Source: a bacterium (GTDB taxonomy: Bacteria > JAJVIF01). Taken from it: a stretch of DNA of 64,000 nucleotides. Position 1 is the stretch's first letter. Each line of letters opens with the position of its first letter. Shown here piece after piece: positions 42,977 to 56,338 of the stretch. The translations under genes were made by a program, and so were the position numbers. The stretch is from contig JAJVIF010000004.1 of NCBI GenBank assembly GCA_022072165.1, positions 79,667 through 143,666 on the forward strand, read 5' to 3'. The notes beneath the pieces are model-generated. The model made no database searches, had not been told where the DNA came from, and saw only the letters and a program-made list of their open reading frames with translations.

Positions 42977-43990
42977 TTACAGGTCGAGGAGTCCTGCAGG
43001 GAGCTTGCGCCAGACACCAGGCTGGTCGGTCTTGTACTGCCAGACCAGCGAGTTTTGCGAATCCAGCAGGGACTCATGGACGATCATTGCAAACCGCTGG
43101 TTCCGAAACTTCTTTCCGGCCGAAGGTTCCCCTCTGGTCAATTGTGCCTGCCGCTTGGGCGCTTCGCCCTTCTCCGATGATGGAGGGGTGGCGTACTCGA
43201 TGATGTAGTTTTCTGAGGTGGCGAACATGACCCACCGGGTATTGTTCACCTCATAGTGAAAGCGCCATTGGCCGGCCTGCGAATGCCAGACTTCCACCGG
43301 TCCGACTTCCTGCTCAATGATCTCCAGTGTCTGGGGGGGAATCCGGAGCCCGAGTTGTTTTTCCAGCCACTGCCCGCCAGGGACTTCGGACGCGGGGGCG
43401 AAAAGCAGTCCCCGGGCGATCCCGTGCAGCAGCTGGAGACCCAGTGGGTCGTGGATACTGAAGCGCAAAATGTGTGGCAGCTCCAGTTCATCCTTGGGGC
43501 GGGGACCCACATTGTGAAACCAGGTACCCTTCGTTTTGCCTTCAAACGGGGCCTCGACATACCAGAGTCCATTGGTGGACTTGTAGCAGCGCCAGCCGTG
43601 GGGTGGCATGACGTCCAGGCGGATGGGCATCAACTCCCCCTGGGCATCGAAGGGTACCAGCGGTAGCGGACTTTCCAGCTCGGGCTGACCGCCCCCGAGC
43701 CAGGCATGAATCACGTCATCCTGGTTACGGGTCGCCGTGCCGATGGCTATCGCAAACGCCTGCAACGAGTTGAAGAGACGTTGCTCCTCAGACTGATTGA
43801 GCCGCTGGGCTATGAACGCCTCCTGCTCTCGTGCTGCTTGCTGGCTTGCGGAGGCGCAACCGCAGCCCAAGATGACACTCAGCATCAGCAGGAGCACCCA
43901 ACCGGAGCCCACGTGGACTGGCAAGTTGCCTGAGCCATACGGCTGCTTCTGCCTATTCACAGCAGCTGCACAGGAAGAGTCTGTGAGCAT
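42977..43990 (-). CDS. lipoprotein, function unknown (downstream partner of Cys-rich protein 1)
   Basis: Hydrophobic segment plus lipobox WVLLLMLSVILGCGC; start uncertain (ATG 43990 or GTG 43913). Confidence 0.5.
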   Translation of the reverse strand: MLTDSSCAAAVNRQKQPYGSGNLPVHVGSGWVLLLMLSVILGCGCASASQQAAREQEAFIAQRLNQSEEQRLFNSLQAFAIAIGTATRNQDDVIHAWLGGGQPELESPLPLVPFDAQGELMPIRLDVMPPHGWRCYKSTNGLWYVEAPFEGKTKGTWFHNVGPRPKDELELPHILRFSIHDPLGLQLLHGIARGLLFAPASEVPGGQWLEKQLGLRIPPQTLEIIEQEVGPVEVWHSQAGQWRFHYEVNNTRWVMFATSENYIIEYATPPSSEKGEAPKRQAQLTRGEPSAGKKFRNQRFAMIVHESLLDSQNSLVWQYKTDQPGVWRKLPAGLLDL

Positions 43991-44495
43991 CTTTATCCTC
44001 CTCGGTGGGTTCAGGCCAGCAATGCAGGTGTTCCTGGCGGGGGCAGCAGGCGTCACAAATCTGATCGTCACCAGTCCAGATGGGCGGACTGGCCTCCTCT
44101 CTCCACGTAAAGCGTGCATCAACCCCTAGTTCCCCACACGGGATGGGTGGGAAGTTCCCAGGGTGCCCAGGATGCTCGTTCTCTATCTCCTCGTAAAGGC
44201 GCTTAAAGTCTTCACAGGTTTCCTGATTCACGCAGGCATACATAGCAGAGTAACCACCGTATTCCGCAGCGCCCCCAGAGATAGCGATGGGTTCTGAGCA
44301 GCTCGGAATCGGAAAGGTGTCACAACAGCAGATGAACTCCGAGAGTTCAAAGTCGAGCGTGGTGTAAAGCGAGATCGCGATCGGGACGCAGCACCCATCT
44401 GGCACGTTTTGCGCCTGGGAAGTCTTCGCGGGGGCTAGCTGTGTCGCGGCCAGCAGTAGCAGCAGCACTGAAAAGTGAAGGGACTTGTGTTTCAT
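43953..44495 (-). CDS. secreted cysteine-rich small protein 1
   Basis: Signal peptide MKHKSLHFSVLLLLLAATQLAPAKTSQA, AAGGA RBS, about 18 Cys including CC and CCC clusters; start overlaps upstream lipoprotein stop (ATGA). Confidence 0.5.
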   Translation of the reverse strand: MKHKSLHFSVLLLLLAATQLAPAKTSQAQNVPDGCCVPIAISLYTTLDFELSEFICCCDTFPIPSCSEPIAISGGAAEYGGYSAMYACVNQETCEDFKRLYEEIENEHPGHPGNFPPIPCGELGVDARFTWREEASPPIWTGDDQICDACCPRQEHLHCWPEPTEEDKDAHRLFLCSCCE

Positions 44496-45508
44496 CGGTT
44501 TTCATTCCTTTCTGGTGCAGACTCCAGACGTGGGACCTCGACATAATCCCACTGATGGGCGGAGAGATCTTCCCAGAGGACCATCTCCTGCAATTGCTGG
44601 GCGATGTGGGCCGACAGGCCTGACTTTCCATAAGGAATGGCAGGACGGTAGTTCAGCAACTTCTTTTTGGGATGAATCTGGAGGTCGTGCCACAAGTCAG
44701 GTATACCTGGACCTGTGAGATGGAGTGCCACTGCGGTGTTATCTGGACGTTTGTACGCCATGATCGAGGGATAGAGAGCCAGCAGGGCTTCCCAGGGCTC
44801 CTGCTGCATTTTGAGATGGAGCGCGTCGAATGCCTGCGACGGCGATTCAGGCATTTGTTTGTAGTACCAATGGTAATGAGTGATGATGCTTGCCAGACTT
44901 CCGGCCCTTCGTGCGCAGAGGTCCTCAGCATCTGGTTCGTGCTCGAAGCCCGGCTTATACTCGCCGGCCAGCGGACGCATAGGCTCATAGCCCTCCCAGC
45001 CGCCGTGAAGGGCCACCCCGAAGTGATCCTCAACCGGGTAGACCGCGATGCTCAACAGGGGCACATCCCCATGTGTCTGAACTACCGGCCAGGGCTCTCC
45101 ACTTTCAAGACAGGGCCAGTAAAGAACCTCAGACGCCAATTCGTTCCAGTTGTTTGGTGCAGTCAACCGGGCCGCTGATGGCACCGCAATTGGGCCAAAG
45201 TAGTAGTTCACCAGGGCCGAATTGACTTCCGCAAAAGTCAGACGTGCCTGGACTTTGGTGATCCCGAGTGGACCATAAGATCTGGCGACCTTCCAGAAGT
45301 CGAAGTAATCGACAGGTTTTTCCTGACGTTTGGTCGCAGTAGAATTCGCAGGCACTTGAGCCAAATCAGTTAGTTTTCCACTATCGCTGACCTGTACCGA
45401 TTTTTCGGCTGAGTTGACCCCGCTGCACCCCATCAGGTACTGGCAGGCCAAGGCAGTCATGAGAGCGACCGTGAGCACGTTCTGACGGGTATTTGTGCGC
45501 TGAGTCAT
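44492..45508 (-). CDS. lipoprotein, function unknown (downstream partner of Cys-rich protein 2)
   Basis: MTQRTNTRQNVLTVALMTALACQYLMGCSG (lipobox); begins 5 nt after the stop of the upstream Cys-rich gene. Confidence 0.55.
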   Translation of the reverse strand: MTQRTNTRQNVLTVALMTALACQYLMGCSGVNSAEKSVQVSDSGKLTDLAQVPANSTATKRQEKPVDYFDFWKVARSYGPLGITKVQARLTFAEVNSALVNYYFGPIAVPSAARLTAPNNWNELASEVLYWPCLESGEPWPVVQTHGDVPLLSIAVYPVEDHFGVALHGGWEGYEPMRPLAGEYKPGFEHEPDAEDLCARRAGSLASIITHYHWYYKQMPESPSQAFDALHLKMQQEPWEALLALYPSIMAYKRPDNTAVALHLTGPGIPDLWHDLQIHPKKKLLNYRPAIPYGKSGLSAHIAQQLQEMVLWEDLSAHQWDYVEVPRLESAPERNENR

Positions 45509-45513
45509 AGGTT

Positions 45514-46029
45514 TCAGCTCGCTTTCTTGTAAGGGCAAGGTGGCAAGTCTGTTTCACACCGCATTCGCGCTTCATGCGGGCAGAAGGGCTCATTGGGACT
45601 TTGTGGAATCGGACAGTCCACAAAAATCTGACCTGGGCATGGAGGTTGGCCTTTTTCTGCCGGCTCTATTAATGCAACAACGTTCCCATAACAGAGTTCC
45701 AGACACCAGCCTTGTCCATCCCTGATGCAGTCAGTGAAGCCTGGTGCAGCTTCAGCGCAATCACCGCAGCGGCACGCTGATCCAAAGGACTCGTTACATT
45801 TCTTGGAGCTTTGGGAAGAGATACCAATCCAGTAGGTCAGCCCGTTGGCGGCACAGTCGCAGGAGTATACTTCTTGGTCATTGCACGGTTCATCGTCTTC
45901 AGTACAAGTCAGGCAGCAATGGCCATAGGCATGAGCCTGACTGACATAACCTGCTTCCGGAGTCGTCCACAAGCTGCCGCACAGGAGCGCCAGGACGATC
46001 ACCATGAGACGTCTGATCTGCATCGTCAT
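45514..46029 (-). CDS. secreted cysteine-rich small protein 2
   Basis: Signal peptide MTMQIRRLMVIVLALLCGSLWTTPEAGYVSQAHA followed by YGHCC...; about 20 Cys. Confidence 0.5.
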   Translation of the reverse strand: MTMQIRRLMVIVLALLCGSLWTTPEAGYVSQAHAYGHCCLTCTEDDEPCNDQEVYSCDCAANGLTYWIGISSQSSKKCNESFGSACRCGDCAEAAPGFTDCIRDGQGWCLELCYGNVVALIEPAEKGQPPCPGQIFVDCPIPQSPNEPFCPHEARMRCETDLPPCPYKKAS

Positions 46030-46071
46030 CCCCCAAGAATGCTGGGGACTGCATACTAATGCACAAGGTTA

Positions 46072-46091
46072 CTCTCTCTCTCTCTCTCTCT
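46072..46091. repeat. dinucleotide microsatellite (CT)10
   Basis: CTCTCTCTCTCTCTCTCTCT sits 43-62 nt upstream of the 46029 start codon, between the M16 peptidase stop and the Cys-rich gene 2 start. Confidence 0.9.
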
Positions 46092-46136
46092 GTCAAGGCG
46101 ATGCCGGAAAATTATTGGCGATGAGCCGACACGCGG

Positions 46137-50782: not shown

Positions 50783-52339
50783 ATGCCCTTCGAAGTGACC
50801 TTCGATGACCAGCCCTATCCCCTGCCACCGGAGTTGGTGCCACCCCCCTTAGGGTTGCTGCCCGCCGATGAGGGGCCAGATAAACTCGCCCTGTTTGAAG
50901 CGCTTGGGCGGCTACAGCGCGACCTCTCCCGGCTCTCCGGACGCCTCCAGCTCAACATCAAGAGTCAGCAGGAAGGGCAGATGAAGGTCGAGGAAGCGAT
51001 GGGGGCTCTGGAGTCCCGCTTCCGCGAAGCGAGCCTGGTGAAGCCCCCGCCACCCCCGGTCGTGACTGGTGGTGGGGCGAGCCTCGAACAGTTGACCCCC
51101 CATCTGGCGAAGCTGAGCGAGCAGCTGGTCGGCATCCAGCGGAAGGTCAATCCCCTCAGCGAGCAGCTCGAAGCGGTGAAGGGGAGTTACAGGGAGAAGG
51201 TCGAGGAGAGTCAAATCGAGCGGATTCTCCCGGTCCTCGACTCCTTCGAGCGCCTCTTCGAGCAGGCGGGTCAGAGTGAAGACCCGAAGATGCAGAAGTG
51301 GCTCGAAGGAGTCCGGATGATCTACAACCAGCTGCGCAGCTTCCTGCGAGGTCAGGGGGTCGAGGAGATTCCGGCTCTGGGTGAGGTGTTTGATCCGAAG
51401 CTCTTCGCAGCGGTCGGGACCGACCCTACGGATGCGTATCCGCCGAACGTGGTCAGCCGGGTCGGTCGGACTGGGTATCGCCGTCAGACCGAATCGGGTA
51501 CGAAAATCCTGCGAGTCCCGGAAGTCTTTGTGGCCAAGCCTCCGACGGAAGCGATGCGCCTCGATGAGTCGCAGCTGACCCGGGCGGAAATCCTGGAGCA
51601 GCAGCGTCGGGAGGATGCGGGGGAAGTTTCTGCGTCATCATCGTCGACGTCTGCGCCTCCGCCAGCGACTGCTGCACCACCTGCACCACTCATCGCTGCC
51701 CCACCGGCCCCATCACCAGCGCCTGTCGTGATGACGGAGCCTGCACCGGAGCCACCACCAGCGTTAGTTGCAGAATCTGTAGCAGAGCCAGCCGCCGCCG
51801 AGGATCTGTTACCCGATCCTGCGACTCTCACCATTGGTCCGGGGGAGGACAAGTTTGCCGACATCCGGGCGAAGGCGGAAGCCGCGCTCAAAGGGCTGTT
51901 CGAGCCCGCCGCGCATCTGGAGTCCGCCCATCCGACCCCGGTGGCGGAGCCGCCAGCACCATCCGTGTCGCCATCGCAGCAGACCAGCTTCGCTGGCTGG
52001 GGTGGTCTTGGGACCGAAGCGACTGTGCCGGACACGCCACCGCAGATGCCAGCAGTCGAGGGAGGAGTCCCGATGGATGCACCGCCGCTGGAAGGGGGAG
52101 GCGAGGAGTACTACGCCTCCGGGGATGGGTTGTATGAACTCCGGATGGCGCGGGGTCTGAGCCTCGCGGACTTCTGGGGACATGCGTTCGGCAAGCAGTT
52201 GGGTGACCAGCAACTGATGGACCTGGGGGAAGCGGTCGAGCGGGAAGAGGAGTGTATCGATGAGAAGGAGCTGCGTCGGCTGGCTCAGGGTCTGGGACTG
52301 ACCGTCGAGGACCTGCTGCCACTGCTCCGTCGGGAGTAA
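50783..52339 (+). CDS. grpE: GrpE-domain nucleotide exchange factor with long Pro/Ala-rich C-terminal extension
   Basis: ILPVLDSFERLFEQAG, EGVRMIYNQLRSFLRGQGVEEIPALGEVFDPKLFAAVG and VGRTGYRRQTESGTKILRVPEVFVAKP match GrpE; followed by about 250 aa of P/A/E-rich sequence. Start uncertain. Confidence 0.7.
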   Translation: MPFEVTFDDQPYPLPPELVPPPLGLLPADEGPDKLALFEALGRLQRDLSRLSGRLQLNIKSQQEGQMKVEEAMGALESRFREASLVKPPPPPVVTGGGASLEQLTPHLAKLSEQLVGIQRKVNPLSEQLEAVKGSYREKVEESQIERILPVLDSFERLFEQAGQSEDPKMQKWLEGVRMIYNQLRSFLRGQGVEEIPALGEVFDPKLFAAVGTDPTDAYPPNVVSRVGRTGYRRQTESGTKILRVPEVFVAKPPTEAMRLDESQLTRAEILEQQRREDAGEVSASSSSTSAPPPATAAPPAPLIAAPPAPSPAPVVMTEPAPEPPPALVAESVAEPAAAEDLLPDPATLTIGPGEDKFADIRAKAEAALKGLFEPAAHLESAHPTPVAEPPAPSVSPSQQTSFAGWGGLGTEATVPDTPPQMPAVEGGVPMDAPPLEGGGEEYYASGDGLYELRMARGLSLADFWGHAFGKQLGDQQLMDLGEAVEREEECIDEKELRRLAQGLGLTVEDLLPLLRRE

Positions 52340-52364
52340 ACTGGTTCACGAGGAGGACGTCGAC

Positions 52365-53063
52365 GTGGAAACGCTGATCGGACAGGGCGCATACACGTTG
52401 CGTGAAGCCGGGCGCATCCTCGGACGTCCGAAGCGTTGGGTCGAGGGCTGGCTGAAGTCGTTAGACCGCACCAAATCCGGTGTACTGCAGGACCGTTGGG
52501 TGTTTGAAGATGTTCGTCTGCTCACTTTTGCAGATTTAATCGAGCTATACCTGATTTCGGAATTCCAGGAGGTCGGGATCAAACGTGCTGTCATCAGAAA
52601 GGCAGCACAGACTCTGACCGAGCGCTACAACTCGCCGCACCCCTTCTCCCTGCGTGCCTGTTTCGCCGATGTGCAGGCGATCTTTTTTAAGTATCAGGGC
52701 GTTCAGGGTGAGTTGAATGAGGATGCTTCCGGCCGGAAGGGACAGCTGGTGATCCCGGCACTTCTGGATGTCATCAGGCATGTCGAAACTCGGCTGGAGT
52801 TTGATGCGGATGGGAAAGCAATTCGGTTCTGGCCGATGGCTACCGGCACTAAGCGTGGTTTGGTGGTGCTGGATCCGATGCGCCAGATGGGGCGACCAAT
52901 CGTGGCGGCCTGCGGCGTTTCCACCCGGGTGCTGGACCTGGCTGTTAAAGCCGAGGGTGTGGAGTATCTGAACGACATCGCGAAGTCCTATCGGGTGTCC
53001 CCTGCTGATGTCCGTGCGGCCGTTGAGTATGAGGAATCATTGCTGCACCGCTCCGCTGCATGA
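52365..53063 (+). CDS. DUF433-domain protein (antitoxin-like) with extended N-terminal region
   Basis: GTG start with AGGAGGA RBS; C-terminal GRPIVAACGVSTRVLDLAVKAEGVEYLNDIAKSYRVSPADVRAAVEY resembles DUF433. Confidence 0.55.
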   Translation: METLIGQGAYTLREAGRILGRPKRWVEGWLKSLDRTKSGVLQDRWVFEDVRLLTFADLIELYLISEFQEVGIKRAVIRKAAQTLTERYNSPHPFSLRACFADVQAIFFKYQGVQGELNEDASGRKGQLVIPALLDVIRHVETRLEFDADGKAIRFWPMATGTKRGLVVLDPMRQMGRPIVAACGVSTRVLDLAVKAEGVEYLNDIAKSYRVSPADVRAAVEYEESLLHRSAA

Positions 53064-53485
53064 AAATCCTGCTGGACGAGCATCATCCTGTGGAGGTTCA
53101 GAATGCCCTGAACACCCTGGGTGATGTGGCGGAAATGATGATTAGGCTGCTGCAACAGGGAATGTCCGATGAAGCACTGTTGGCCTACTCAAAGCAGGAA
53201 AAGTTTGAAGTCTTCCTGACCGCAGACCGAGGTATGCGAGGGAAGCAGACGCACAGGGCCAGCCTGGCCGGCTTCCTAGATATGGGTTGCGTGATCTTCC
53301 TGCCAGCGAAGTACACAAAGCTGGGTCGGTCGCAAAAGGCTGCCTGGCTGCTGGAGTATTGGCCTGACATCCGCAGTGTGGTGGACAAATGTCCTGCCGG
53401 TCACTTCATCAAAGTGACTGCGACAGGACTGCCGCAGATTCGGCCGTACAATCCCCCGACTCATTCAAGCGGGGGACCGGTGTAA
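53060..53485 (+). CDS. DUF5615-family (PIN-like) protein, putative toxin partner of DUF433
   Basis: MKILLDEHHP... N-terminus typical of DUF5615; ATGA overlap with upstream gene. Confidence 0.6.
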   Translation: MKILLDEHHPVEVQNALNTLGDVAEMMIRLLQQGMSDEALLAYSKQEKFEVFLTADRGMRGKQTHRASLAGFLDMGCVIFLPAKYTKLGRSQKAAWLLEYWPDIRSVVDKCPAGHFIKVTATGLPQIRPYNPPTHSSGGPV

Positions 53486-54381
53486 CGACGCTGGACCTCC
53501 AGCACCTGATATGGCAGCGCAGCGAAGAGGTGTTGACAGGGCAAACTCCGTAAATCGACACCACCCACATAAGTCGACACCCAGGCATCTTTCAGCTGAC
53601 GCAAGCCCTCGGTGAAGAGCGCTCGCCCGTAGCCCTGTCCCTGCGCCGCGGGCTCGACATGCAGTGCCAGTAACGCGCCAGTCCGGGGATCGGCGGGCCA
53701 GCTTTGCGGCAACACCGCTCCGATGGGCCGCCCGTTGTGGTAGCCGATCCGCCAGCGCTGAGGTTCCAGTTGCGCCCCGGCAACCTGCCGCATCGCGAGC
53801 AGGGTGGCGGTGGCAGTCCCTTCAGGCATCGCTCCAATGGTTTCCAGCATCTGTCCGAACTGGAGATTGCCGACATCATGCAGGCTCCGCCAGGCGAGGG
53901 GGAGCTGCTTTGTGGGAGGAGTCCAGCCTGCCAGATCAGCTTTGAGCATGGACTGCTCATCGAGGTCCTGAAAGCCCATCGCCACGAAAAGCTGATCCAG
54001 CCGATCCGGGTCGCCCTGCACAGGGTCCAGTAGCAGGACCCCTTCGATCTGCTTAATCTGCCGCGACCAGCACTCCGCCAAAAAGCGGGCCAGCAGACTC
54101 CGCCCGATTTCATCGATGTGAGCGGGGTCGGGGATGAGGGGGGCGAGGACCTCCGCGCGCCGTCCGGGGCGAAAGCGTGCCCGGAGGACTCCCAGCCATT
54201 GCCCCCGGGATCCTTCAGCGACCAGGAACTCGGCGGGGTCGAAATCCGGGGCATGGAGGGCCGGCACCAGCCGATTCAGGGCGGCTTCGGCGGTCCCACC
54301 CGTCAGGGACTGGGTCAGGGCGACCCACTGGGGGCCTTCCACGGGCGTCAATGAGCGGACCGAGAAGTGCAAAGGAGCCAT
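53461..54381 (-). CDS. GNAT-family N-acetyltransferase (two-lobed)
   Basis: ALLALHVEPAAQGQGYGRALF resembles GNAT motif A. Confidence 0.55.
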   Translation of the reverse strand: MAPLHFSVRSLTPVEGPQWVALTQSLTGGTAEAALNRLVPALHAPDFDPAEFLVAEGSRGQWLGVLRARFRPGRRAEVLAPLIPDPAHIDEIGRSLLARFLAECWSRQIKQIEGVLLLDPVQGDPDRLDQLFVAMGFQDLDEQSMLKADLAGWTPPTKQLPLAWRSLHDVGNLQFGQMLETIGAMPEGTATATLLAMRQVAGAQLEPQRWRIGYHNGRPIGAVLPQSWPADPRTGALLALHVEPAAQGQGYGRALFTEGLRQLKDAWVSTYVGGVDLRSLPCQHLFAALPYQVLEVQRRYTGPPLE

Positions 54382-54569
54382 GCTGAAGGGGCATTATGGA
54401 CGAGTCTGGCGGGTACAATAGTAAGTCGCGACCTCTGGCCACCGGTTCCGGTCCCTGGGCCTTCCACTGAGGGATGACAGGTGGAGAGAGAGATGCCAGT
54501 CGCCGCTGTCACCAGCCCGGCCGTCGTTGGCCCGGTGTTGCCCAGGAAGTAGTGAGGCTCGCCACTCTC

Positions 54570-55688
54570 ATGGCTGTCTGTCAACCAGGGACTGCTCCCA
54601 CGACGCTCGAACGGAGCATCGGGACGTTGTTTGGGCTGGCCATCGGGGATGCCCTGGGGGCGCCGGTGGAAGGCTGGCCCCGGGAGACGATCCGAACGGC
54701 GCTCGGTTTTGTGCGGGATTATCAGTACACGATTTTGGGGCGGGGGACCGTCAGCGATGACACCCAGATGACCTTGGCCCTCGCCGAAAGCATCACGCAG
54801 GAGAGGCAGTTCGAACCGGAGCATTTCGCTTTCTGTCTTGGCGAATGGATGCGGAAGCACGACCAGGGGATCGAGGCCGCCCGTGGGGCGAGCAAAACAG
54901 TCACCCTCACCACCCGGGCGCTCTACCGGGGGATCCCCTGGACCGAGACCGGTCAGCCCTCAGCCTCGAATGTCCCGGCCGTCCGGGTCGCGCCGCTGGC
55001 GCTCTACCACCTGCACAGCGATGAGGCTGCGCTGCTGCGGGATGTGGAAGATTCCGCGCTCCCGACGAATGTCGATCCCCTGGCTATCAGCGGCGCGAAG
55101 CTCATCGCCCTGGCGATCCGGGCGCTGCTCCGGACCGATCCTGGCGAGTTCTCACCATCATCGTTCCTCGATTACCTTGAGATCCATGCCCGCCATTTCT
55201 CGCCCCGTCTGGCAGAAGCCCTACGACCCATCCGGGAGTTTCTCTGTCAGACCCCGCTGGAAGATCAGGTCTTCGGGTCGCCGGTGGCAGGCTATGCCCA
55301 TCCGGAGTACTGCCTCGACCTGCAGGCGGAAATCATGGACCGGTTCGAGGTGCTGCAGCGGATCGGCACCGGCAAGTTCGTGCTGGAGTCGATCCCGGCG
55401 GCAATTTACTGCTTCCTGCAGAGCCCCCACAATTTCGAGATGAGCATTACGACCGCTGTCAATGCGGGGGGCGACACCGACTCCATCGCAGCAATGACTG
55501 GTGCCCTGTCCGGGGCGTTTAACGGCACCACCGGGATCCCGCAGCGCTATCTGGAAGAACTGGAGCATCGGGATCGACTGATGGACCTGGCGACCCAGCT
55601 CTATGCGATGGCGGATGACTCGGACCATACGGAGCCGACCACCTGGTCGTTGTCGGTGCAGATCACCCAATTGCGCCAGTCGGAGTGA
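54570..55688 (+). CDS. ADP-ribosylglycohydrolase family protein (DraG/ARH-like)
   Basis: GTLFGLAIGDALGAPVEGW and TAVNAGGDTDSIAAMTGALSGAFNG are the two signature ARH motifs; start approximate. Confidence 0.8.
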   Translation: MAVCQPGTAPTTLERSIGTLFGLAIGDALGAPVEGWPRETIRTALGFVRDYQYTILGRGTVSDDTQMTLALAESITQERQFEPEHFAFCLGEWMRKHDQGIEAARGASKTVTLTTRALYRGIPWTETGQPSASNVPAVRVAPLALYHLHSDEAALLRDVEDSALPTNVDPLAISGAKLIALAIRALLRTDPGEFSPSSFLDYLEIHARHFSPRLAEALRPIREFLCQTPLEDQVFGSPVAGYAHPEYCLDLQAEIMDRFEVLQRIGTGKFVLESIPAAIYCFLQSPHNFEMSITTAVNAGGDTDSIAAMTGALSGAFNGTTGIPQRYLEELEHRDRLMDLATQLYAMADDSDHTEPTTWSLSVQITQLRQSE

Positions 55689-56338
55689 GCGATTCGTTTC
55701 AGTCGTTGCTGGCGGACTATCGTGCTCTGGCCCTGACGGACCCTTTTCAGCCACCCCGTGATCTTGAGGTCTACGCCCGCTGGCAGCAGTCACCAACGGA
55801 GGCGGTGGTCATGGCCGGGAATCTGGCGGCCTCGCTCTGCATCCTGGGGCGGGACCTGGGGAAAGACGAGGTCCGCTATCAGCAGCCGCTCATCGGCGCA
55901 GCGGGCCAGAAAGTGCGTCGCACCCTGCAGCAAGTGCTGGCCCCCTCGACCCTCGAGGACAAGCCCTGGTTTACGGCGGGTCTGGCGCATTACTGCATCA
56001 CCAACACGGTGCCGTACAAGCCGCTCGGCAACGCCCCATTTAGTGAGACCACCAGGGAAAAGTGTCGTCCGCTGGTGGAGCGATTCTTAGCGGACCTCTG
56101 GCAGGGAGATGTGCTGATGCCGCTGGGGCTTGGTGCGCTGGAATGGTGCCGTCCCTATGGCGCTGCGACCGTCGATCGCTTCGTCGCCCTCCCGCTCCCC
56201 GCCTGGCATGAGGCGGAGGGGCAGATCAAAATCGGCGGCAAAGTCATCCGCCTGCTCCCCCTGCCGCATCCTTCACCGCTGAGCCAGTACTCGCGTCATT
56301 TTCCCGAGTGGCTGGCTGCCCGCATCGCGCAGCTGTAA
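55685..56338 (+). CDS. uracil-DNA glycosylase superfamily protein with non-canonical motif A
   Basis: C-terminal LPLPHPSPLSQ (HPS motif) and N-terminal ILGRDLGKDEV...LIGAAGQKV in the position of the GE(A/G)PG...F(V/I)G.AG motif; GTGA overlap with ARH stop. Confidence 0.6.
   Translation: MSDSFQSLLADYRALALTDPFQPPRDLEVYARWQQSPTEAVVMAGNLAASLCILGRDLGKDEVRYQQPLIGAAGQKVRRTLQQVLAPSTLEDKPWFTAGLAHYCITNTVPYKPLGNAPFSETTREKCRPLVERFLADLWQGDVLMPLGLGALEWCRPYGAATVDRFVALPLPAWHEAEGQIKIGGKVIRLLPLPHPSPLSQYSRHFPEWLAARIAQL

Follow-up and report, generated by a model that had tools for sequence, protein, structure and literature searches.

The window analysed here is a stretch of 64,000 nucleotides from a bacterial contig. 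It contained two co-oriented, adjacent genes, antitoxin first, as in toxin-antitoxin (TA) modules of the VapBC45 type. They lay between a gene for a GrpE-domain protein and a convergent acetyltransferase gene, in the following layout:

50783..52339, forward strand: GrpE-domain protein, ~518 aa (Pfam GrpE, 1.9e-24)
52350..52356, forward strand: Shine-Dalgarno sequence GAGGAGG of the antitoxin gene, read off the sequence, 8 nt 5′ of the GTG
52365..53063, forward strand: VapB45-like antitoxin gene, GTG start, ORF of 232 aa
53060..53063, forward strand: ATGA start/stop overlap of the antitoxin and toxin genes (ATG at 53060-53062, TGA at 53061-53063)
53060..53485, forward strand: toxin gene, predicted PIN_10/DUF5615 PIN-like nuclease, ATG start, ORF of 141 aa
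53461..53485, both strands: 3′-end overlap of the toxin gene (forward) with the GNAT gene (reverse), 25 bp
53461..54381, reverse strand: GNAT acetyltransferase, 306 aa, convergent (Pfam Acetyltransf_1, 3.5e-7)

The 4-bp overlap described in the earlier note was present, the ORFs 52365..53063 and 53060..53485 sharing the ATGA, and the translation of the second ORF begins with MKILLDEHHP, as had been read there. The junction reads ...GCTGCATGAAAATC..., with ATG and TGA fused, which suggests that translation of the two genes may be coupled. An overlap of the form GC(A/G)TGA recurred in three metagenomic loci (L007, L008 and L009), in L012 and in a pair on a Methylobacterium plasmid (L020). The genes of the Paracoccus and Geminocystis plasmid pairs were 5 and 101 bp apart, with no overlap. 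At the assigned start, the antitoxin N-terminus, METLIGQGAY, lines up with those of homologues, such as MATLLGQGAF in L012; the GGAGGA of the Shine-Dalgarno sequence was kept in the junction alignment with L010 and L012. The pair was identical across five independent assemblies, and the toxin ORF was full length and intact in all of them.

Gene callers give 518-530 aa for the upstream GrpE-like protein, with a linker rich in Pro and Ala and, at the C-terminal end, a conserved domain of ~75 aa. The gene stops 25 bp short of the antitoxin start codon (21 bp in L012), and a promoter and terminator scan of this gap found no sigma-70-like promoter or terminator-like site. Given so short a gap with neither signal detectable, the pair is probably transcribed together with the GrpE-like gene. 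The sole inverted repeat upstream of the antitoxin gene was imperfect (15 nt, 80% complementary) and was not kept in L010 or L012, and a three-way junction alignment with these two loci revealed no conserved operator palindrome. No CIRCE heat-shock operator was found within the window, and an Rfam scan detected one tRNA only, far from the pair. The GNAT gene, correctly placed by the earlier note as convergent and directly downstream, has its 3′ end within the toxin gene, an overlap of 25 bp; it was syntenic in L010 and L011/L012, and the 3′ overlap was kept in L011 and L012, at 22 bp. We rejected it as a TacT/AtaT-like toxin partner, as it is convergent, encodes a two-domain protein of 306 aa and is not accompanied by a small antitoxin gene.

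Within the antitoxin gene, three features were delimited:

52365..52700, forward strand: predicted MerR-like winged helix-turn-helix (HTH) and long helices, residues 1 to ~112, aligning with residues 17-118 of 5af3
52863..53030, forward strand: DUF433 domain, residues 167-222 (Pfam 19.3 bits, cutoff 23.6, E = 1e-3)
53055..53060, forward strand: C-terminal Ala-Ala, putative ClpX degron (A231 and A232 near-invariant or invariant in family alignment A2)

Residues 9-220 of the antitoxin aligned with Rv2018 (VapB45, PDB 5AF3; phmmer E = 1.2e-6), and the profile of the antitoxin family matched 5af3 with E = 1.2e-27. The AF2 model of the antitoxin (pLDDT 76.7) had 5af3 as its best Foldseek match (E = 9.6e-8, TM 0.67/0.72, 223 columns, ~21-22% identity), followed by MerR-family DNA-binding domains. 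Judged by alignment and predicted fold together, the antitoxin is homologous to Rv2018 over its full length, with a winged HTH and a DUF433 domain. On its own it missed the Pfam thresholds of DUF433 (PF04255) and HTH_66 (PF21321), giving no HTH_66 match and, in the N-terminal region, only a sub-threshold HTH_23 match at residues 10-31. We attribute these low scores to divergence, since the Rv2018 alignment spans both domains. HTH_66 and DUF433 were both carried by antitoxin relatives: among 13 family members, eight matched HTH_66 and seven MerR_1, and DUF433 was matched by 10 of 13 relatives (best 4.3e-8). The DUF433 domain is the best-conserved part of the family (VVLDPxRxxGxP ... GVST), with V168, L169, D170, P171, G176 and P178 invariant in A2. 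It would be the toxin-binding, neutralising part of the protein, and the region in front of it, ~165 aa, would comprise a DNA-binding module and a helical linker. The N-terminal part of that region, which the earlier note had treated as extra, is predicted to be an operator-binding module of the HTH_66 type.

The DUF433-like segment that the earlier note had seen at the end of the first protein thus corresponds to Pfam DUF433 at residues 167-222, though below cutoff. Its description of the protein as an unusually long DUF433 partner did not hold. A length of 232 aa is standard architecture beside PIN_10 toxins, Rv2018/VapB45 being an example, and it is ordinary here because a two-domain DUF433 antitoxin is the usual partner in the VapBC45 type. 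The fusion of a MerR-like HTH to DUF433 has been on record since Makarova et al. 2009 (PMC2701414), and Matelska et al. 2017 (PMC5499597) set up DUF433-PIN_10 as a class. A long DUF433 protein beside a PIN-like gene is therefore a recognised architecture and no anomaly. The expectation of a shorter protein comes from the short DUF433 (COG2442)/PIN pairs, such as Synechocystis VapBC10 (ssr2962/slr1767); PIN-COG2442 pairs have been predicted or demonstrated to act as VapBC-type TA systems (PMC2701414; PMC3834315). The present pair shares with them a DUF433 antitoxin, a PIN-like toxin scoring on DUF5615 and the operon layout. Unlike the present antitoxin, with its ~165 aa of MerR-like HTH and helices in front, their antitoxins are single-domain proteins of ~70-110 aa, and the present toxin scores higher on PIN_10 than on DUF5615.

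The toxin matched Pfam PIN_10 (PF18478; 28.7 bits, cutoff 26.2, E = 1.4e-6) over residues 1-70 only and, less strongly, DUF5615 (PF18480; 25.4 bits, cutoff 23.8) over residues 1-60 only. Both scores exceeded the Pfam gathering values, bearing out the DUF5615 PIN-like identity proposed in the earlier note. PIN_10 was matched by all 24 aligned toxin relatives (best 2.2e-27), four of which also touched Mut7-C, and by the partner proteins of all three plasmid pairs (Methylobacterium, Paracoccus and Geminocystis). Three aspartates, all kept here, were the sole invariant columns among 24-27 toxin sequences in the alignment:

53075-53077, forward strand: codon of D6
53168-53170, forward strand: codon of D37
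53225-53227, forward strand: codon of D56

The AF2 model of the toxin (pLDDT 85) showed an alternating beta/alpha arrangement. Fold searches with it returned no specific PIN fold match and no VapC structures, and a phmmer search of PDB with the toxin sequence gave nothing meaningful. The toxin family profile produced a sub-threshold PIN match in PDB (1o4w, E = 0.33) across D37...D56. PF01850 was not matched by the toxin or its relatives in Pfam, and NCBIfam and PADLOC scans of antitoxin and toxin gave no matches. The toxin is very divergent, with only 5 matches at E <= 1e-3 among 1.84 billion representatives.

We consider it probable that these genes form a chromosomal type II TA module of the VapBC45 (Rv2018/Rv2019) type, a known kind of TA of which the present copy is divergent yet intact. 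The Pfam matches, the 5af3 alignments and the PIN_10 matches of relatives all agree with the toxin-antitoxin-like DUF433/DUF5615 pair that the earlier note had recognised. By homology, the 141-aa protein would be a PIN-like nuclease of the PIN_10 class and Mut7-C group, acting as a Mg2+-dependent endoribonuclease. Free toxin would cut rRNA and mRNA by means of the acidic D6, D37 and D56, arresting growth. DNA binding and repression of the operon are predicted for the MerR-like winged HTH of the antitoxin, and the C-terminal DUF433 domain would bind and neutralise the toxin. The conserved Ala-Ala probably marks the antitoxin for degradation by ClpXP, which under stress would free the toxin. The ATGA overlap would couple translation of the two genes and, in the present lineage, both are probably co-transcribed with the GrpE-like gene 25 bp upstream.

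The prototype, VapBC45 of Mycobacterium tuberculosis, in which this type was first characterised, resembles the present pair in several respects. Antitoxin precedes toxin in both, the sizes (232/141 aa here) compare with a 5af3 antitoxin chain of 241 residues, and the antitoxin combines a winged HTH with DUF433, aligning end to end and with a predicted fold that superposes on 5af3. The antitoxins of both end in Ala-Ala; in VapB45, whose level rises when ClpP2 is depleted, this C-terminus is a typical ClpX degron (PMC8165232). The toxin falls within the PIN_10 cluster for which Matelska et al. 2017 (PMC5499597) give a link to Rv2018. In both E. coli and M. smegmatis Rv2019 proved toxic; it is neutralised by Rv2018 and cleaves rRNA in a metal-dependent manner (Kim et al. 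2016, PMC5175181); the metal-dependent RNase and antitoxin expected here are taken from that work by analogy. The Rv2019 D4K mutant was still toxic (PMC5175181), so that even for the prototype no settled role can be given to the first Asp. The present pair differs from VapBC45 in lying 25 bp behind a GrpE-like gene, an arrangement syntenic across lineages, in its low antitoxin identity to 5af3 (~21-22%) and in a toxin divergent enough to have only those 5 matches.

Canonical VapBC modules (PIN PF01850 with an AbrB, RHH, PhD or MerR-type antitoxin) follow a similar overall logic. Overlapping genes are common to both, as would be a DNA-binding antitoxin, predicted here, and a metal-dependent PIN-like RNase built on acidic residues. 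D37...(T)xD56 resembles the third and fourth PIN acidic motif, the 1o4w match across it being sub-threshold. Unlike canonical VapC, the present toxin lacks a PF01850 match, and VapC structures were absent from the fold-search results. For the Mut7-C group, of which no structure has been solved, the core is predicted to lack H3 and S3 (PMC5499597). Counting against a VapBC45 assignment are the weak Pfam membership of both proteins, the lack of NCBIfam and PADLOC matches, the strong divergence of the toxin and the failure to find a conserved operator palindrome or a sigma-70-like promoter upstream.

The neighbourhood of the pair (GrpE-like protein, GNAT and ADP-ribosylglycohydrolase) was shared with L010 and L011/L012. 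Identity to L011/L012 was 43% for the toxin, 53% for the antitoxin and 61-83% for the flanking proteins. Compared with L010, dN/dS was 0.068 for the toxin, the lowest value of the locus except for the ADP-ribosylglycohydrolase; the antitoxin value was 0.18, and purifying selection acts on both genes. Values for the GrpE-like gene were discarded, having been computed from a start coordinate one base out of frame. The corresponding dS was 0.22-0.34 for the pair and 0.29-0.48 for the neighbours. With this neighbourhood shared by a relative that has only 61-83% identity in the flanking proteins, the pair did not arrive recently and has been vertically inherited at its present position. Stable vertical inheritance beside housekeeping genes is atypical for a selfish TA module and also counts against the VapBC45 reading. 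A search for empty sites among genome contigs with the ADP-ribosylglycohydrolase found nothing. The ADP-ribosylglycohydrolase alignment recovered only relatives of ~24-49% identity from other phyla, and a metagenome scan with the GNAT alignment only recovered the L011 contig again. That these scans found almost no close relatives indicates that the lineage is rare.

This conservation raises another reading, which we regard as unlikely: a descendant of a VapBC45-type module may have been co-opted in the GrpE-like operon and may no longer be an autonomous addiction or defence module. Such a form could be a stress- or chaperone-linked regulator with an RNase, or a tripartite chaperone-TA system like TAC. 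The order GrpE-like, antitoxin, toxin, convergent GNAT has been kept while the flanking proteins diverged to 61-83% identity, and purifying selection on the pair equals that on its neighbours. The shortness of the gap behind the GrpE-like gene, free of promoter- and terminator-like sites, also fits; other family members (L007-L009 and the plasmid pairs) have upstream gaps of their own, of ~90-600 bp. The GrpE-like protein is itself atypical, with ~518 aa and a conserved extra C-terminal domain. However, adjacency and a missing consensus promoter are weak evidence of co-regulation in an unknown phylum, and the conservation of synteny is shallow, covering three related lineages only. The pair also keeps what an ordinary TA module has, namely every Asp of catalytic type and the Ala-Ala degron.

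TAC itself (HigB1-HigA1-SecB(TA) of M. tuberculosis) likewise has a chaperone-system gene co-oriented with and tightly linked to a type II TA pair, and a ClpX degron on the antitoxin is treated in a review that covers TAC (PMC8165232). The linked gene here, however, is upstream and encodes a GrpE-domain protein, and GrpE is a nucleotide-exchange factor, unlike the holdase SecB. The antitoxin also ends where its homologues end and hence lacks a C-terminal chaperone-addiction extension, so that the resemblance of the pair to TAC is positional only. It is improbable that, in this uncultured lineage, the pair has become fixed in an operon headed by the GrpE-domain protein, with its C-terminal HTH-like domain, and forms with it a three-gene stress module linked to the chaperone cycle. 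If it did, release of the toxin would be coupled to the state of proteostasis and not to plasmid or phage events, and the module would be a counterpart, built on GrpE, of the TAC systems that depend on SecB.

The GC content of 53101..53160, estimated at about 55% in the earlier note, was exactly 0.55. The pair as a whole had a GC content of 0.569 (56.9%) against a window mean of 0.636 (63.6%), or -2.5 sd (sd 0.026 for 1121-bp windows); 3% of the 1121-bp windows were as low or lower, and the lowest-GC block of the window lay elsewhere, at 44.3-46.1 kb. GC3 of the pair was 0.65, compared with 0.72-0.79 in the neighbours, and all three codon positions were lowered, which marks the dip as real but modest. 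This might point to a lower-GC TA cassette recently inserted by horizontal transfer between the grpE-like and GNAT genes, the more so as divergence is faster in the TA proteins than in the neighbouring ones. The family is also mobile elsewhere: similar pairs occurred on plasmids of several phyla, and family members lay beside transposase, resolvase and ArdC genes. The earlier note had looked to mobile elements for related pairs, and these were indeed found on the Methylobacterium, Paracoccus and Geminocystis plasmids; a tblastn search of a phage collection gave no match. Recent arrival at this locus is nevertheless very unlikely and largely refuted by synteny, as position, orientation and even the GNAT 3′ overlap are the same in L011/L012, at a toxin identity of only 43%. 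Synonymous divergence from L010 equals that of the flanking genes, and no flanking repeats, integrase, tRNA or transposase accompany the pair. In L012 the pair and its neighbours differ little in GC3 (0.72-0.74 and 0.74-0.78), and the lower GC is partly a matter of amino-acid composition, since GC1 and GC2 are down as well. The lower-GC patch of the earlier note thus stands as a dip but does not mark a recent acquisition. A modest GC dip alone is no sign of recent horizontal transfer; here synteny and synonymous divergence show long vertical residence.

There is very little chance that the pair is an inactive remnant, a DNA-binding protein with a harmless partner that has lost its nuclease activity: the toxin is extremely divergent in sequence, Pfam models reach only its N-terminal half and fold searches gave no specific PIN match, but it keeps the family-invariant D6, D37 and D56, is complete and undamaged in every assembly, has a confident model (pLDDT 85) and evolves with a dN/dS of 0.068.

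The assignments add labels, VapB45-like antitoxin and PIN_10 (VapC45-like) toxin, to two proteins left essentially unnamed by automatic annotation; the antitoxin is a "hypothetical protein" in the source annotation, and for both proteins NCBIfam has no match and Pfam scores are marginal. The toxin forms, with P0017 and P0018, a subfamily that is among the most divergent PIN_10 members, and this subfamily could help to define the truly essential residues of a structurally uncharacterised PIN-like group.

We assign the pair at 52365..53485 to the known VapBC45 / DUF433-PIN_10 class, as a divergent and previously undescribed member, and homology supported its reading as a toxin-antitoxin system. 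The genes at the locus were as follows.

50783..52339, + strand, GrpE-domain gene (Pfam GrpE 1.9e-24; about 518 aa, atypically long)
52365..53063, + strand, antitoxin gene from the ORF list (GTG start, 232 aa)
53060..53485, + strand, toxin gene from the ORF list (ATG start, 141 aa)
53461..54381, - strand, GNAT gene (306 aa; Acetyltransf_1 at 3.5e-7)

The ORF list and the sequence bore out the two-gene arrangement described in the earlier note. The toxin ATG and the antitoxin TGA share a 4-bp ATGA overlap within ...GCTGCATGAAAATC..., which would imply translational coupling of the two genes. A ribosome-binding site (GAGGAGG) lies 8 nt 5′ of the antitoxin GTG. The GNAT gene was indeed convergent directly downstream, sharing the last 25 bp of the toxin gene (53461..53485). 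This 3′ overlap is without a terminator-like structure. The conserved toxin tail ...SSGGP may be under constraint from the opposite strand, which encodes the GNAT C-terminus ...GPPLE.

The second protein matched PIN-like families, as had been proposed. In a Pfam profile search it scored over the gathering thresholds of both PIN_10 (28.7 vs 26.2) and DUF5615 (25.4 vs 23.8), the matches being confined to its first 60-70 residues. Its sequence is very divergent: exhaustive phmmer among 1.84 billion representatives gave five matches at E <= 1e-3, and a profile search added 26 further proteins, all annotated PF18478. All 24 aligned members matched PIN_10, four of them also touching Mut7-C. The only invariant columns were D6, D37 and D56, in agreement with the "3-4 active-site residues" of the Mut7-C group (PMC5499597), while F80, L81, W101 and P102 were nearly invariant.

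A DUF433 segment in the first protein was recovered at residues 167-222, though the Pfam score was sub-threshold (19.3 bits vs 23.6). More was learned from solved structures. Residues 9-220 aligned with residues 17-236 of 5af3, the crystal structure of the Mycobacterium tuberculosis antitoxin Rv2018 (VapB45) (phmmer, E = 1.2e-6), and a family profile of 13 members matched the same span at E = 1.2e-27. With the AlphaFold model (pLDDT 76.7), Foldseek ranked 5af3 first (E = 9.6e-8, TM 0.67/0.72, 223 columns), ahead of MerR-family DNA-binding domains; HTH_66 (PF21321), MerR_1 and DUF433 were found by Pfam in relatives. These results give the protein as a whole the Rv2018/VapB45 architecture, the "extra" N-terminal region being a MerR-like winged helix-turn-helix and a helical linker. 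The long DUF433 partner is therefore not the oddity it had seemed: the architecture is known, solved by crystallography and covered by a Pfam model. Fusions of COG2442/DUF433 with a winged HTH, "eg. Rv2018", linked to PIN genes such as Rv2019, were described by Makarova, Wolf and Koonin 2009 (PMC2701414), and the PIN_10 cluster and "DUF433-PIN_10" system were defined, citing 5af3, by Matelska et al. 2017 (PMC5499597).

We infer all functional steps for this pair. By homology with Rv2019 the toxin would be a metal-dependent endoribonuclease, which the antitoxin, like Rv2018, would neutralise. Rv2019 proved toxic in both E. coli and M. smegmatis, Rv2018 gave rescue, the rRNA cleavage by Rv2019 is EDTA-sensitive, and its toxicity is abolished by E41K and by D98K (Kim et al. 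2016, PMC5175181). The DUF433 domain is the probable toxin-binding module, since it is the best-conserved part of the family alignment (VVLDPxRxxGxP...GVST) and constitutes the whole antitoxin in short DUF433 pairs. The same argument makes the MerR-like N-terminus a putative DNA-binding, autoregulatory module. The family C-terminus is almost invariantly Ala-Ala, an ending that in VapB45 has been called a typical ClpX degron, VapB45 being up on ClpP2 depletion (review of M. tuberculosis antitoxin proteolysis, PMC8165232). This conservation may be partly forced by the overlapping ATG.

The pairing recurs elsewhere. At three metagenomic loci with distant antitoxin homologues, the protein encoded directly after the homologue had at least 123 aa (L007, a lower bound as the gene runs off the contig end), 137 aa (L008) and 135 aa (L009). 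The latter two matched PIN_10, and a GC(A/G)TGA overlap was common to all three. Related pairs also occurred on plasmids or beside mobility genes, a point raised in the earlier note: L009 lies amid resolvase, DDE transposase and ArdC genes, and tblastn found full-length antitoxin homologues on 13 plasmids from Alphaproteobacteria, Thermus, Cyanobacteria and others. Each of the three plasmids opened had a PIN_10 gene immediately 3′ (70-89 bits). Phage records gave no antitoxin match by tblastn.

The earlier hand count of 55% GC for 53101..53160 was exact. The pair has 56.9% GC vs 63.6% (sd 2.6%) in equal-sized windows, placing it in the lowest 3%, with the dip present at all three codon positions; in the distant relative (L012) it was nearly gone at GC3. 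The recent acquisition hinted at by this patch was contradicted by synteny and divergence. The pair was identical in five independent assemblies (0 nucleotide differences). A close relative's contig (L010) and the distant relative (L011/L012) share the order GrpE-like gene, antitoxin, toxin, convergent GNAT, ADP-ribosylglycohydrolase and UDG, and L011/L012 keeps the toxin/GNAT overlap at 22 bp. Identity to the distant relative was 43% for the toxin, 53% for the antitoxin and 61-83% for neighbours. Against L010, dN/dS was 0.068 (toxin), 0.18 (antitoxin), 0.089 (GNAT) and 0.11 (UDG), and dS ranged over 0.22-0.34 in the pair and 0.29-0.48 in neighbours. We conclude that the pair descended vertically alongside its neighbours and that purifying selection acts on it, although it evolves more quickly at the protein level than they do; we do not regard the GC dip as evidence for recent transfer. 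An orthologous empty site was not found in genome and metagenome collections, as the lineage is nearly absent from both. The ADP-ribosylglycohydrolase (54474..55688, +) is exceptionally conserved, its protein being 100% identical to that of L010 (dS 0.29) and 83% identical to that of L011, and its stop overlaps the start of the UDG-family gene (55685..56338, +) by 4 bp.

The antitoxin starts 25 bp past the stop of the GrpE-domain gene (21 bp in L012), and the interval holds no promoter-like or terminator-like site and no conserved palindrome. Other family members have upstream gaps of their own, of 90-600 bp. It is thus plausible that the pair is transcribed together with the GrpE-like gene. 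The product of that gene consists of a GrpE domain, a Pro/Ala-rich low-complexity linker of about 200 aa and, at the C-terminus, about 75 conserved aa (YELRMARGLSLADFWGHAFGKQ...LAQGLGLTVEDLL), a segment that resembles an XRE-type HTH (HTH_3 score only E = 0.076); the L012 counterpart of this protein has the same architecture at 63% identity. That the pair was domesticated into a chaperone-linked role with this atypical protein seems to us improbable: gene position is the sole positive evidence. No dnaK, dnaJ or hrcA gene or CIRCE element adjoins the GrpE-like gene. An imperfect inverted repeat (52303..52365; 15-nt arms, 80% complementary, 33 nt apart) reaches across the stop codon of the GrpE-like gene and the ribosome-binding site of the antitoxin gene, and could sequester the latter site in the mRNA; neither L010 nor L012 conserves the repeat.

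The lowest-GC block of the window, at about 42977..46100 (about 0.54 at 44.3-46.1 kb), makes a more likely variable or acquired insert than does the toxin-antitoxin pair. Its unannotatable ORFs comprise a 381-aa ORF, a 348-aa lipoprotein-like ORF and two of the Cys-rich ORFs listed below; in L010 the interval between photolyase and M16 peptidase holds only a 127-aa zinc-ribbon gene. The window has three small Cys-rich ORFs, each with a signal-peptide-like N-terminus.

43953..44495, - strand, Cys-rich ORF, 180 aa
45514..46029, - strand, Cys-rich ORF, 171 aa
50166..50585, - strand, Cys-rich ORF, 139 aa (no Pfam match)

All three carry CC and CxC motifs and fall within the patches of lowest GC in the window (0.525-0.55); they may belong to one family of secreted, Cys-rich proteins.
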